DNA from: Nitrospirota bacterium | GTDB taxonomy: Bacteria > Nitrospirota > UBA9217 | Reading direction: 5' to 3' | Length of the DNA stretch: 64,000 nt | Assembly: GCA_963796285.1 (NCBI GenBank) | Contig: CAWCKW010000012.1 | Span: 1,088,001 to 1,152,000 of the forward strand | Part shown: one piece after another, positions 35,325 through 43,121 of the stretch | How the letters are laid out: each line of letters begins with the position of its first letter | How positions within the stretch are numbered: position 1 is the stretch's first letter | The notes under the pieces: generated by a model | Databases searched by the model: none | The model's input: the letters and a program-made list of their open reading frames with translations, nothing else | What the model was told of the DNA's origin: nothing | Made by a program: the position numbers and the translations under genes

Positions 35325-36098
35325 CTATTGGCCGGGAAACGCGATCCCGGATAAGCGGCCGCATTCTGAAAGATACTTTTCCTGCACAGCCGGATCCGCG
35401 GCAGCCGGGTGACAGCTCCCGGGTTGTAGATGATGGAAATATCTTCCCGAGACCAGGACCTCCTTGTCCTGGCTCGCTGCCAGCCACACCTGCGTCCGCG
35501 CCCCTTCCTCAACGCTGACAGGAGCTCCCCGCCCTCCCATCTTCGTGGCTGCCCAGCCGGGGTCCACGGCATTGGACAATACGTCGGGCCATTTGCGTGC
35601 AACGGCAAAGGCAAGGATGACGTTGTGCAGCTTCGAATCGGCGTAGGAGTTCGATCCGCCTCCGGTCCGGCTGCCCGAGGTCAGGTCGTTCAAGCTGGCG
35701 TCGCCACTTCGATGGAGACCAGAGCTCGTATAGACCAGCCGCTTCGGCCTCCTGATCAGGCAGGTCAGGATATAGGGGGCGAGGGAGTTCACAGCAAAGA
35801 TCTGCGGCAGGCCGTCCACGGTCGTTGCGCCATGGGGCACAAGATAGATGCCGGCATTATGGATCACGGCATCGAAGGGTCCCAGCTCGTTCACCCGGTC
35901 CGCAAGGGACTTCGTTTCCGCGATGCTTGCCAGATCGCCGATAACCGCGGAGAGCGCACCCGGGACTTTGGAAAGCGCCTCGTTCGCCCGATCCCGGTTG
36001 CGTCCGTGCAGCACGACCTGGTGGCCCTGGCTGACCAGCAGCCGCGCCTCCATCAGTCCGAGACCGTCGGCAGAACCGGTAATGAATATTCTTGCCAT
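35325..36098 (-). CDS. SDR family oxidoreductase
   Basis: TGSADGLG, HNAG and YADSK motifs. Confidence 0.93.
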   Translation of the reverse strand: MARIFITGSADGLGLMEARLLVSQGHQVVLHGRNRDRANEALSKVPGALSAVIGDLASIAETKSLADRVNELGPFDAVIHNAGIYLVPHGATTVDGLPQIFAVNSLAPYILTCLIRRPKRLVYTSSGLHRSGDASLNDLTSGSRTGGGSNSYADSKLHNVILAFAVARKWPDVLSNAVDPGWAATKMGGRGAPVSVEEGARTQVWLAASQDKEVLVSGRYFHHLQPGSCHPAAADPAVQEKYLSECGRLSGIAFPGQ

Positions 36099-36276
36099 GG
36101 AGTTTTCCCCGAAAACCTGATCGTCTTGCTCTTTATAAGTTTAGCAAAAAATGATGCCGTGACAGGTCCGTTTTATCGTAGTCAGCCACTGTTACGAGGG
36201 CAGGCTCAAAGGCGAAAGGATTCGATCAGGAGGTAAACGATCGCGAGGTGATCGATTTTCTTTATCATGGCTGACC

Positions 36277-36825
36277 TCATGGGATTTCCGTGCGGCCCTG
36301 CATCCCCTGAAGCCGCCGGAACGAGCGGACGATCAGGGGAACGGCGATCATCGCGCCGAGCACGATCCACTCCGCTGTGTCGGGATCGCGGAAGTACCTG
36401 CTCAGGCTCAGGGTCGAGACTGCAATGACGGCGTAATACAGCATGTCGCCCACGATCGCGAAGGCCCAGCCCATCATGAATCCATGGCCCGCAGCCAGCG
36501 CTGCTGCCCGCCCGGACATCGGGTCCGCGCCAAAGGAGAACATAACGAGCGCAATAGGGCCTGCACCGGTGCCGCTGAATTGGGCCGTGGTGCGGGCTAT
36601 TGCAGCCTTCATCCTTGCGGTGAAACGGGCGAGAAACGGGACTTTACCCACCAGCCAAGCGAGAAGTCGAAGGATCGGTTCGAATGCGAGGGCAAGTAGC
36701 ACATCGGAAACCAGGTAAAGCCCGGCAGTCACGGGCCAGGCCAGACCCTTGGTCTGGGCGAGCAATACGCCTGCCGGGATTCCGCCCCCGACAGGGATAA
36801 GGAAGAGCATCAATACGGAAAGCAT
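36277..36825 (-). CDS. hypothetical membrane protein
   Basis: Several TM helices; FLIPVGGGIPAGVLL; start at 36825 or 36897. Confidence 0.75.
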   Translation of the reverse strand: MLSVLMLFLIPVGGGIPAGVLLAQTKGLAWPVTAGLYLVSDVLLALAFEPILRLLAWLVGKVPFLARFTARMKAAIARTTAQFSGTGAGPIALVMFSFGADPMSGRAAALAAGHGFMMGWAFAIVGDMLYYAVIAVSTLSLSRYFRDPDTAEWIVLGAMIAVPLIVRSFRRLQGMQGRTEIP

Positions 36826-36999
36826 GGGGGATACTAACAAAAGAGACGGACAAAAGCAAGCGGCGGGGCGGGCTTGGTATTGTGGGGTATTTAACAAAGG
36901 TTGATATATCTAATTAGATGCCTGGCAAGGAAAACAGAGCGGGAAAATGTCGACATGCAACAAAGGAGACTCCTACCAGGCTTGCTCCGCGCCTCCGCG

Positions 37000-37530
37000 T
37001 CAACCCAAATGTTCCCTTTCATAGGCCATTACCCGGTCACGTTCCTCTGCCACAGACAGCGACTCAAGGTATTTCTGCATCTCAACCGAATTGGGAAATG
37101 CTGTCGGAATCTGAGCGTAAGGTACGCAGACAACCAGGACAGTCCTCACCAGATCCATCACGCTGAATTCGAGGAGTTTGCGAATTCTTTCGGGCGTTGC
37201 CTGTTCGAGCCGGAGAGGATCTTGATGATACCAACCGTGGCCGTGAGGGGTTATGAGGGTCGAGTCGATGCCTTTCTCTTTTTTTACGATCATGCCTTGT
37301 TTGGCCGCAAAAGCGGAAACATGAGTGCGGAGCAGCTGGATTCCTCTGACTGCCGGATTGGAGCAGATGCCGCCCTTTCTCCAGGAGAGCCGGCAGAACA
37401 GTGAAAGATTGATTCCGCAGCAGTATAGGTAGCTGTCCGGGCCCAGTCGCGGTTCCTCCCGGATCACAATATACAGGAAAGCGTTTTTATACTCGAATGA
37501 ACGGATCGGCGCGGTTTGCATGATCATCAT
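37000..37530 (-). CDS. hypothetical protein (paralog of 26853..27374)
   Basis: Colinear similarity: EYKN.F...VIRE, GICSN, GWY, MQ..LES. Confidence 0.8.
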   Translation of the reverse strand: MMIMQTAPIRSFEYKNAFLYIVIREEPRLGPDSYLYCCGINLSLFCRLSWRKGGICSNPAVRGIQLLRTHVSAFAAKQGMIVKKEKGIDSTLITPHGHGWYHQDPLRLEQATPERIRKLLEFSVMDLVRTVLVVCVPYAQIPTAFPNSVEMQKYLESLSVAEERDRVMAYEREHLG

Positions 37531-37993
37531 CCTTTCTTCTACGCAGCACGTTGCTTACCGTAGTATAACAATTCCGGAATAATCTTCAAGCTCATAGAGC
37601 ATCGTACTCTCTCGGTTCCCGACGTGATGCTCATGGATTATCATAGTTGAGTGATTATACAGGATTCAGATTCAGGTAAACCATAAGCATGGGCCGGGAC
37701 AAGTCGGAGGTACAAGTTCCCTTATCTCTGACGTAAAAAAGGAGAATCCACCTAACCGAGACGCAGAGAAATACATATTTAAATTATTGAGAATTCCCTC
37801 AGCGCCTCTGCGTCTCCGAGGTAAATTTGACCTTTTTTCGACTTTTTACGAATGCATCATATAATGTAAACTGCCTTATGCCTATCCGGTTTAAATGCTT
37901 TTTAAGTGACCAGACTGCCCGATTTGGTGATATACTCGTCCCATCGTAAATTTATCGGAGGTGAGCCATGGTTGATCCAACTAGAGATGGGAT

Positions 37994-38344
37994 ATGAACA
38001 TGATGACACCGATAGAAGAACGAGACAAGGCTTTATCAGTCATCGACCCATTTTTGCTCGAAATTTCCATGATCTTCAGAGAATGCTATTTATCAGAAGG
38101 GAAAGGTGCGCTTCTTGTTTATGCGGATTCAGTAATAAATGGCAACATTCCCACTGAGAGTGATTACACAACCAAAAACGATGTTCTTGAAATAATAGAC
38201 GGCATCGATGCTAAAGCCGGCCTGGCTGCGCTTTTAAGCACATACGACCCGCATACAGAAGGGATCTTGGTTTTAATTCCGAGCAGTAATATTGCACCAT
38301 TTTTTATTACAATCAAGCTGAAATCGCGGAGCACAGCAGACTGA
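37994..38344 (+). CDS. hypothetical protein
   Basis: Clean 116-aa ORF in a low-GC interval. Confidence 0.6.
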   Translation: MNMMTPIEERDKALSVIDPFLLEISMIFRECYLSEGKGALLVYADSVINGNIPTESDYTTKNDVLEIIDGIDAKAGLAALLSTYDPHTEGILVLIPSSNIAPFFITIKLKSRSTAD

Positions 38345-38586
38345 GCTAGCAACAGGATCAATCACAACCTGGATATGACTTCATTTTATATCTTGGCTGT
38401 CTCTCCCCCACCAATAGCTCCTGCAAGGACTCGATAGGTTATAGCTATTTATCCCACGCAATATAATTTTGTTAATTTCCTTGTTGACCTCACGTCCCCA
38501 AGTCCCTATGACAATCTTATCCCGAATGTCAACAGTAAAGACCCTGAGGTCTTCGTTGTGGGCAACGTCGCGGAGATGCGTCAAGT

Positions 38587-39423
38587 TCAAGGAATGCTTG
38601 CGGCTGCAGGCACGGAACAAGTCTGACCGCCACGGCGGCGCTGCACGAGCCGGAGGAGATCCTCTTTCCGCATCGGCGAGAGGCCTAGGCTGTCCGCTTC
38701 CTTTTTAAGCACGTCGTAGGAGCCATCGCCGCCGAGATAGCCGTTCACGCGCGCCACTGCGGTCGAAGCAACATAATCGGCAAAAGAGGGATAGATCCGC
38801 ATGAGTTCCTCCGCAAACTCAGGGTACTGCCGGAGGCTGTGTTTCTGGTGGTAGTCCTCGGCAAGTGTAAAACCGTTGTAGTTGATGATCTCCGTATGGA
38901 CCGTCTTACCGCGCTCTTGCTCGATCTGCGCCTTGGACTCCCGGGCAAGCCGCAGCTGCTCATCGTTATGCACGAAGATTATGGAGGCGTACTGGCGCGA
39001 CCAGCTCCGGTACGAAGGATCGTGTCCGGTCCAGAAGGCGCGGAGCAGTTCCTTGTAGGATATCCTGGAGGGATCATAGTCGATCTGGACGGTTTCTGTG
39101 TGGTCGCCGAGCGAGCGGTAGGTTGGATTCTGTTTGGTCCCGCCGGCATATCCCACGCGCGTTCTGATTACGCCGGGCAGACTCCCGAACTGGGAGTCGG
39201 GTCCCCAGAATCAGCCCATGGCAAAGGTTGCGGTAGCGATCTCTTTCGGCGCGAGGGCGTCGATCAGGGGTTTCGATGCAGAAGACGCGGAAGCAAAGGC
39301 ATTCGGGCTCATGTTATGCTGCCCCCTTTCTGTTGCGAAATAAACTGCCCCCGCGGCAAGCAGGAACAGAAGCAGTGCATATCCGGGAAACCGGAGCACG
39401 TATGGATTTTTGTCCTTGGTCAT
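38587..39423 (-). CDS. msrA: peptide methionine sulfoxide reductase A, selenoprotein (GUFW), with N-terminal signal/TM
   Basis: ATFAMG-TGA(39213-39211)-FWGPD in frame with VGYAGG, HTE and AEDYHQK; perfect hairpin GACTCCC-AGTTC-GGGAGTC 12 nt after the UGA. Confidence 0.92.
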
Positions 39424-39666
39424 GGGGAAATTATCCCACCTATCGATCAGCGGACGCAAGTAAAATGAGGGGCATAAGAATTTTTCGAGAGGAATAATGA
39501 AGGAACTACTTTAGTAGGAGAAGATCAAAGGAAGCCTATATCAGGGGGAACTGAGATAATTGTTTGCTGATGCGACAATTGCGCCCAATGCAAGAGGCAA
39601 GACCCTCAAGGTTCTCCGGCGTACGTTCAGTACGGGTCTGCCTCATGCCGGGCGCGAGCAGGCTGT

Positions 39667-40284
39667 TTACTTTTTCTTCATCGCATCGGCCACCCTGCCG
39701 ACGAGCTTCGGCCCGGGCTTGAGCGTGATGTCTCCCTGCTTCTTCCACTGGGCCGGGACGCCCTCCGAAGGGTGAGCGGCGAGATGTTTATTCGCGCGGA
39801 GCTTCCGGAGCAACTCCTCGACGTTCCTGCCCAAATTGAAAAAGTTCACTTCCGCGTTCAAAAGGGTGCCTTCGGGGCTGATGATGAACGTCCCGCGCAA
39901 AGCGAGCCCCGCTTCTTCATCGAGTACACCGAACAGGCGCGCTATGTCGCCGGTGACGTCGGAGGCCATGGGGTATCTGACCTGCGCCAGGGCCTTTTCG
40001 TCCCTCTGCCAGGCGAGGTGCACGAATTTGGTGTCCCTGCTCACCGTGACCACCTCGGCCCCAAGCTTCTGGAACTCATCGTACCGCTCCGCCAGAGCGG
40101 CAAACTCCGTTGCTCAGACAAAGGTAAAATCGGCGGGATAAAAGAACAGGACCGTCCATTTCTTTGCCGCCTTCAGTTTCTTCAGGCTGATCTTCCCGAA
40201 ATCGCACTTGACCGGGTCGAACATCTCAAGCTCAAAATCCGGAACTTTCTCGCCGACGCTCAGACTGCAACAATGCTCAGACAT
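39667..40284 (-). CDS. ahpC: AhpC-type peroxiredoxin, selenoprotein (peroxidatic Sec)
   Basis: FFYPADFTFV-TGA(40116-40114)-ATE in frame with HLAW, ALRGTFII and GRN; hairpin CCGCTC-TGGCG-GAGCGG after the UGA; GGAGG RBS. Confidence 0.92.
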
Positions 40285-40464
40285 ATCAGTTCCCTCCTTG
40301 TTGGAAATGTAGTGACGCATGATAAGATAAGTATAGCATGTTCCATTCTTACAGCGCCTGCACAAGGGTCAGACGCCTGTTGTAAAGCGTCGCCTGCACC
40401 CTCTTGTTAGTTGATCGTTTTATCGCCGCCCTGTCAGAAGCTCTCGAAGACGTTTATGCTGCGA

Positions 40465-42711
<2,247 letters not shown>

Positions 42712-43035
42712 CTATGAATCGACGAGACGGAAACCGGCGTTCTTCCATCCTTCGACACCGCCGCCCAGAACCTTGGCATTCGAAAATCCCTGCGCCAGAT
42801 ATTCCGCTGCCCGACCGGCAGCGCTAGCTTCTTTCTGTCAGGCTCAGTAGAAGATGATTTCCTGGTCCCTGGACAGGGAGGGCAAACGCGCCTTGAAGTC
42901 CTGCAGCGAGATCGCGGACTCAAGGTGCATTTTCCGGAACTTCTCCACGTCCTCGTACGCGCATACAAGAAGGGCCTCTCCGGACGTAACCTTCTTGCGC
43001 GCCTCTTCTGCCGATATTCTTATTGGCTCGGTCAT
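42712..43035 (-). CDS. rhodanese-like protein with two in-frame UGA codons (IIFY-U-A-U)
   Basis: Read-through of TGA 42846-42844 and 42840-42838 gives QKEASAAGRAAEYLAQGFSNAKVLGGGVEGWKNAG, which completes the rhodanese fold; GGGAGG RBS. Confidence 0.85.
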
Positions 43036-43121
43036 GGGGGGCCTCCCATCGGTGGATAGGCTGTGAATGAATAAAGGATAGCACAGACCAGAGGGAGATG
43101 CATGGGGTGTCATAGAATCAT

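Follow-up and report, generated by a model that had tools for sequence, protein, structure and literature searches.

Does a gene that carries two in-frame TGA codons, one codon apart, encode a complete protein with two selenocysteines, and does a single hairpin in its mRNA serve both codons? This question is raised by a rhodanese gene on the minus strand of the stretch of DNA analysed here, which is 64,000 nucleotides long (hereafter, the window) and belongs to a Nitrospirota MAG. With a probability of roughly 0.88, we suggest that the gene is intact and that its product would be a cytoplasmic rhodanese selenoprotein with a single domain and a [Cys/Sec]-x-Sec motif, here Sec-Ala-Sec, with both UGAs decoded via one SECIS. 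A preliminary description, made from the letters of the DNA, had proposed a closely similar reading, and its claims are taken up below where the evidence bears on them.

Coding frame, fold and active site

The minus strand reads ATC ATC TTC TAC TGA GCC TGA CAG AAA GAA GCT AGC GCT GCC GGT CGG GCA GCG. Re-reading of the sequence and its translation confirms these letters, as first reported, together with the open frame of 41 codons after the second UGA. With TGA read as U, the 107-residue translation contains ...DQEIIFY-U-A-U-QKEASAAGRAAEYLAQGFSNAKVLGGGVEGWKNAGFRLVDS, and the 41 codons past the second TGA are conserved, among them those for GFSNAKVLGGGVEGWKNAG. ORF calling with table 11 breaks the gene in two, and the N-terminal ORF ends at the first TGA. 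Residues 9-100 of the 107 match the Pfam Rhodanese model PF00581 (E 5.9e-10), and the score of 39.9 bits passes the gathering score of 22.2. The features of the gene and its surroundings are collected in Table 1.

Table 1. Positions of the features discussed in the text, in window coordinates unless another record is named.
Feature	Position	Strand	Remarks
Rhodanese selenoprotein CDS	42712..43035	-	107 residues, single domain; TGA read as Sec at codons 64 and 66
Start codon ATG	43035-43033	-	
Stop codon TAG	42714-42712	-	
Shine-Dalgarno-like GGGAGG	43042..43047	-	6 nt before the ATG; letters read directly, putative function
First in-frame TGA, codon 64	42844..42846	-	catalytic-Cys position; TGY (Cys) in CxU relatives
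Second in-frame TGA, codon 66	42838..42840	-	near-invariant Sec position of the family
SECIS hairpin within the CDS	42805..42823	-	7-bp stem CGCUGCC/GGCAGCG, loop GGUCG; conservation and covariation
katG	40465-42660	-	next downstream of the rhodanese gene
AhpC/TSA peroxiredoxin gene	39667-40284	-	TGA at 40116-40114, at the peroxidatic Cys (FTFV-U-ATE); Pfam E 5.6e-39
MsrA gene	38587-39312	-	TGA at 39213-39211; G-U-FWG, predicted Sec at the catalytic position
Covering contig X1 record 5	42650-42969		
Covering contig X2 record 10	42600-43068		
Paralogue pair on L073, one C-A-U and one U-G-U	L073:3001-3315 and L073:4043-4366		

The fold is established as that of a rhodanese. In an AF2 model built from 102 family sequences (pLDDT 91.2, pTM 0.85), the U-A-U motif lies between a strand (residues 59-63) and a helix (residues 67-81); the nucleophile position ends the central strand and the helix comes next, as in the alpha/beta rhodanese fold. 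Foldseek matches the model to GlpE (TMq 0.77), BH2092 (0.71-0.72), YgaP and other rhodaneses, with a probability of 1.00 for GlpE, BH2092 and YgaP. The rhodanese identity assigned from the letters is borne out by the Pfam match, the model and these structural matches. When seven orthologues were combined into a profile and aligned to solved rhodaneses, the first U matched the catalytic Cys of 6mxv, a rhodanese-like protein, as well as the Cys in the YCWGPAC loop of BH2092 (3o3w/3nhv), the latter in a gap-free alignment; this upholds the earlier placement of the first UGA at the catalytic Cys. Based on the alignment and the model, Sec-64 would thus occupy the classical nucleophile position at the end of the central beta-strand, while Sec-66, at the N-terminus of helix 67-81, would cap that helix. 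A further residue, Cys-25 in the LVCAY strand (codon 42961-42963 on the minus strand), is at least 90% conserved across the 102 family sequences and may be a third redox partner near the active site.

Conservation of the two TGA codons

The source genome is a MAG (3.58 Mb in 13 contigs, 96% complete) with 5% estimated contamination, and one or both TGAs might for this reason be sequencing or assembly errors. However, for Logan contigs from two independent studies (X1 and X2 in Table 1) that span the two codons, no difference is listed at either of them. The preliminary description had called for confirmation of both codons in raw reads; the letters hold in the contigs of the two studies, which are assembled sequences rather than the raw reads themselves and one of which may come from the source sample, so that the comparative argument for the TGAs is the stronger one. 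Four further species-level genomes (G240, G204, G025 and G257) have the same TGA-GCC-TGA, as do the records L035, L037 and L038, which apparently overlap with these four. We consider the probability of an error at either codon to be close to negligible. Run X3 spans the rhodanese gene in short pieces only, and the RNA-library contig X15 spans only 42600-42839, ending within the second TGA; it gives evidence neither of a full-length transcript nor of one shared with katG.

Orthologues are present in 8 of 61 related genomes (the source genome included); four of them have U-A-U (the source genome, G025, G003 and G001) and four C-[AG]-U. In an evenly sampled set of 401 genomes of the phylum, the family occurs in 27, again including the source genome, and the tabulation of homologues that the preliminary description had proposed gives 12 UxU, 15 CxU and no CxC, which corresponds to a UxU share of ~44% of the family in this sample. 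A double TGA is thus found in 12 of these 27 members, while the description had named its absence from all homologues as a sign against its reading. Codon 66 is TGA in all 27; codon 64 is TGA in 12 and TGY in 15, and across the relatives TGA-64 alternates solely with TGY.

Two wider searches extend the family beyond the phylum. When 185,579 species genomes were searched with peptide patterns, 240 relatives were returned, and the 80 kept (8 UxU, 71 CxU and 1 CxC) span Nitrospirota, Thermodesulfobacteriota, Planctomycetota (anammox) and others; because one of the two peptide patterns ended in Cys, UxU is under-sampled here (8/80) and the set is not used for frequencies. A search for the DNA pattern TGA-NNN-TGA followed by a hairpin, which selects for UxU and gives presence only among the matches listed, returned at least 119 matches. 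At least 49 of these are UxU rhodaneses by filter and, among the matches listed, about six more resemble UxU rhodaneses by eye, the remainder being chance matches in GC-rich genomes. Among the matches listed, UxU genes are found in Nitrospirota, Thermodesulfobacteriota, Planctomycetota, Methylomirabilota, Acidobacteriota and others. Pooling and de-duplication give 116 family members, 63 CxU, 52 UxU and 1 CxC, a ratio that is not a frequency because of the manner of collection. Position 66 is U (TGA) in 115 of the 116 unique members, which supports the part of the preliminary reading that concerned the second UGA, and codon 66 encodes Cys in L089 and P0018. In other words, both in-frame UGAs align with Cys in homologues, codon 64 with the TGY of the 15 CxU members of the phylum sample and codon 66 with the Cys of L089 and P0018.

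Public gene calls end many members of the family at one or the other TGA. Among the best 120 database homologues, 43 are exactly 63 aa long and end at UGA-64, and many others are 65 aa long and end at UGA-66, as had been anticipated for the annotation of this gene. These calls are what would be expected if the gene were a pseudogene, or if the first TGA were a true stop and the real product the 63-aa N-terminal fragment of the public databases. Such a product would, however, contain only half of the fold and no active-site loop, and the 41 downstream codons are kept in frame. In all nine UxU-UxU pairs, the codons from 67 onward have a dN/dS of 0.04-0.26, similar to the 0.04-0.27 of codons 1-63. 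As judged from these ratios, the codons after the TGAs are under purifying selection, and the low dN/dS past both UGAs argues that the downstream part is maintained as protein in the same frame. The conservation of the SECIS hairpin and the exclusive exchange of TGA-64 for TGY likewise speak against a true stop, and we regard this explanation as very improbable. By these comparisons, the gene and its conservation are established and both TGAs are almost certainly read as selenocysteine.

The practical value of the present reading is in annotation: public protein sets store the gene and dozens of its relatives as fragments of 63 or 65 residues. An NCBI record gives one of the 63-aa fragments the name "ArsR family transcriptional regulator". 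Seven full-length entries (six from ENA and one from Logan, among P0003-P0016 and P0035) have FYCAW, i.e. a UGA read as Trp.

The distribution of the two states was followed on a maximum-likelihood tree of 110 members; six rows whose length was not within 95-130 aa were omitted, and U was treated as C to keep the Cys/Sec trait from influencing the topology. On this tree, 17 changes of the motif are required compared with a shuffled mean of ~37, and 17 is an upper-leaning estimate because the alignment columns are few and many forks are unresolved; at least three changes are forced by well-supported branches alone. For instance, L039 (CGU) and L133 (UGU) are sisters with 98% support. Thus, as reconstructed on this tree, position 64 has switched between Cys and Sec several times. 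At the same time, UxU is kept in whole clades, e.g. in five Methylomirabilota and six Syntrophales sequences. A Syntrophaceae contig (L073, JAGXSW010000127.1) carries two family paralogues ~1 kb apart, one with C-A-U and the other with U-G-U. The family illustrates the ease with which a catalytic Cys would be swapped for Sec once a SECIS is in place.

The hairpin and the selenocysteine machinery

The first base of the hairpin loop lies 21 nt after the end of UGA-66 and 27 nt after the end of UGA-64, and the stem starts 14-15 nt after the second UGA; the two distances had been given correctly at the outset, with the same end points. A DNA alignment of 72 sequences (A2) that starts at the first motif codon contains no gaps, and CxU and UxU genes therefore share the register of the hairpin. 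The stem corresponds to alignment columns 24-30 with 36-42, which are paired in 86.5% of cells compared with 81.6% in shuffles (0 of 500 as high), and pairing drops to 23-55% when the partner is slid by 1-3 columns. At pair 27-39, where both bases are third codon positions, UA occurs 45 times, CG 14, UG 7, GC 2 and AU once, and the loop is GGUC[G/A] in most of the 72 sequences. The hairpin is not folded by L089, the sole CxC relative examined as DNA. On its own, the 81-nt hairpin region folds no better than shuffles (z -0.32), and the case for the hairpin is thus built on conservation and covariation and not on folding energy; because the stem encodes the conserved SAAGRA residues, part of this conservation is at the protein level.

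In the available part of a 2026 review (PMC13188914), the bacterial SECIS model has a G in the first two loop positions and a loop 16-37 nt from the UGA. The hairpin described here has GG at the start of its loop, and its distances of 21 and 27 nt both fall within this range. The earlier proposal of one hairpin for both UGAs has thereby gained ground, in that the hairpin is conserved, covaries and lies at a distance compatible with each codon. The existence of the hairpin is established; we infer that Sec is inserted at both codons and that the one hairpin is used twice. In the mechanism that we propose, a single SECIS within the coding mRNA, overlapping the codons for A-A-G-R-A-A, would be used by SelB with Sec-tRNA(Sec) for UGA-64 first and then for UGA-66 two codons on.

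The spacing between a UGA and the minimal SECIS has been reported to be strict in E. coli, so that a single hairpin would not necessarily work efficiently at two distances, and some termination at UGA-64 may occur. UGA-64 might be decoded poorly, in which case mostly the 63-residue fragment would be made and the double-Sec full-length protein would be a minor species. Two Sec insertions from one hairpin would need two loadings of SelB within two codons, and since the register of the hairpin is set by the ancestral second UGA, the first UGA lies at a spacing for which the hairpin was not originally set. A mostly wasted product is, however, hard to square with a dN/dS that is as low downstream of the UGAs as upstream, and the retention of UxU in 12 of the 27 phylum-sample members and in whole clades, as well as the position of both spacings within the 16-37 nt of the bacterial model, also count against poor decoding. 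On balance, we find it unlikely that the full-length protein is a minor species and favor decoding of both UGAs. If both are indeed decoded from one fixed hairpin, the family is a natural experiment, which would show that bacterial SelB and the SECIS tolerate two spacings as well as rapid re-loading. The family is also a small natural system in which the service of two UGA codons by one bacterial SECIS can be studied.

The machinery for selenocysteine, for which the preliminary description had asked, is established for the source genome. The genes selB (369.6 bits) and selA (595.4 bits) are adjacent on contig C12, selD (350.1 bits) carries an in-frame TGA of its own, and SelA, SelB and SelD all score above their curated cut-offs. 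A tRNA-SeC gene lies on C12 beside selAB, ~6 kb from selB, and ARAGORN calls two further tRNA-SeC genes in the genome (three in all); it found no tRNA within the window itself, the tRNA-Sec genes being elsewhere in the genome. Two contigs carry the selD with its in-frame TGA, scoring identically, and a third holds pieces of it (C1:101902-102822, C8:19066-19986 and C9:16273-17201). The repeated selD and the three tRNA-SeC calls may reflect duplicated contigs or the MAG's 5% contamination. The same genome encodes a second, apparently exported rhodanese (L004, G000:C12:90396-90695) with the motif FYCRGMG-U-GLS; its one in-frame TGA lies five residues past the catalytic Cys, making it a different form of Sec-rhodanese.

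Genomic setting, possible chemistry and relation to known selenoproteins

In the source genome, the rhodanese gene is accompanied by katG, a peroxiredoxin gene and a MsrA gene, all on the same strand, with a terminator-like site between the latter two. The AhpC/TSA gene probably encodes a Sec-peroxiredoxin and is split in two by table-11 ORF calling. Sec-MsrA is a known selenoprotein form, and the table-11 ORF of the MsrA gene begins only past the TGA. The nearest relative, L035, has 96% nucleotide identity to the window over 42713-43113, shares no sequence with 36108-42712, and is similar again at 36001-36107. Lacking a counterpart of 36108-42712 in L035, the KatG/peroxiredoxin/MsrA neighborhood is specific to the source genome, and this region looks like a genome-specific, selenoprotein-rich peroxide-defence island.

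We considered guilt by association as a route to the function of the family and dropped it. At 115 family loci, tblastn of KatG gave no match and tblastn of four other readable window neighbors gave single matches only, for three of them; when the 2274 neighboring ORFs were clustered, the top cluster was present in only 10 of the 115 loci. With no recurring neighbor, the gene context gives no functional support and the family is best described as a stand-alone gene. Thus, the peroxide-defence setting of the rhodanese in the source genome is suggestive only.

Considering the active site itself, the U-A-U pair would most likely form a redox or chalcogen-transfer center. Residue 64 would carry a persulfide or a perselenide, or the pair would cycle between diselenol and diselenide; for the CxU relatives, oxidation would give a selenenylsulfide. 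The vicinal diselenide or Se/S-carrier site proposed in the preliminary description is likewise a putative one. We also entertain, as a rather doubtful idea, that position 64 is a freely reversible Cys/Sec switch and that U-x-U, perhaps together with Cys-25, forms a low-potential diselenide center for peroxide defence, not sulfur transfer. Our literature searches found no experimental incorporation of selenium for this rhodanese or any member of its clade. The search for two selenocysteine and rhodanese found no paper, and that for rhodanese, selenocysteine and diselenide returned, going by titles and the openings of abstracts, none on the protein described here.

The double-Sec rhodanese is a kind of protein reported from sequence in 2007, and the gene described here represents no new kind of system. 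The part available of Zhang & Gladyshev (2007; Nucleic Acids Res 35:4952, PMC1976440) describes, from the metagenome of the Olavius algarvensis symbionts, a "rhodanese-related sulfurtransferase" in a UxU form. As far as that part defines it, this form is a rhodanese domain with a Sec-x-Sec motif, and the gene described here encodes exactly this combination; likened by the description of domain and motif, the two share membership of the rhodanese family, a second Sec that has evolved, and the U-x-U motif. They differ in their sources, which in the accessible text of that paper are marine deltaproteobacterial symbionts and here a Nitrospirota MAG. The novelty implied by the preliminary description therefore does not stand: the form was already on record in the part of the 2007 paper available, and it is widespread. 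It is also far commoner than the literature suggests. The available part of the 2026 review (PMC13188914) lists five forms of rhodanese selenoproteins, the third of which is NF041203, with CxU and one Sec; "UxU" does not occur in that part of the review, nor in the accessible part of the GOS paper (PMC2398784).

The best NCBIfam match of the protein is this same model, NF041203 (rhodanese_LYCAU, "rhodanese-related (seleno)protein"), with 48.4 bits against a cut-off of 115, and five further members of the clade score 44.9-69.9 bits, all below 115. These scores argue that the clade is a sister group without a curated model, and it passes no curated NCBIfam model. The two groups have the same domain, and their active-site loops correspond in part: as in the Cys-x-Sec motif of NF041203, the second position is Sec, whereas the first, position 64, is occupied by Sec in the protein described here and by Cys in 15 of the 27 clade members of the phylum sample. 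Two UGAs a few codons apart in one gene are also found in the FmdB-family UxxU and the rhodanese/DsbD-like TsoB UxxxxU proteins, as given in the available part of the review (PMC13188914); these belong to other families and have a Sec spacing other than the U-x-U described here. Finally, GlpE (1gmx) and BH2092 (3o3w/3nhv) have the same fold, and their catalytic Cys corresponds to residue 64. However, GlpE and BH2092 are all-Cys proteins, while the rhodanese described here has a second chalcogen at +2, and GlpE has a six-residue rhodanese loop where in our model a helix begins right after U-A-U.
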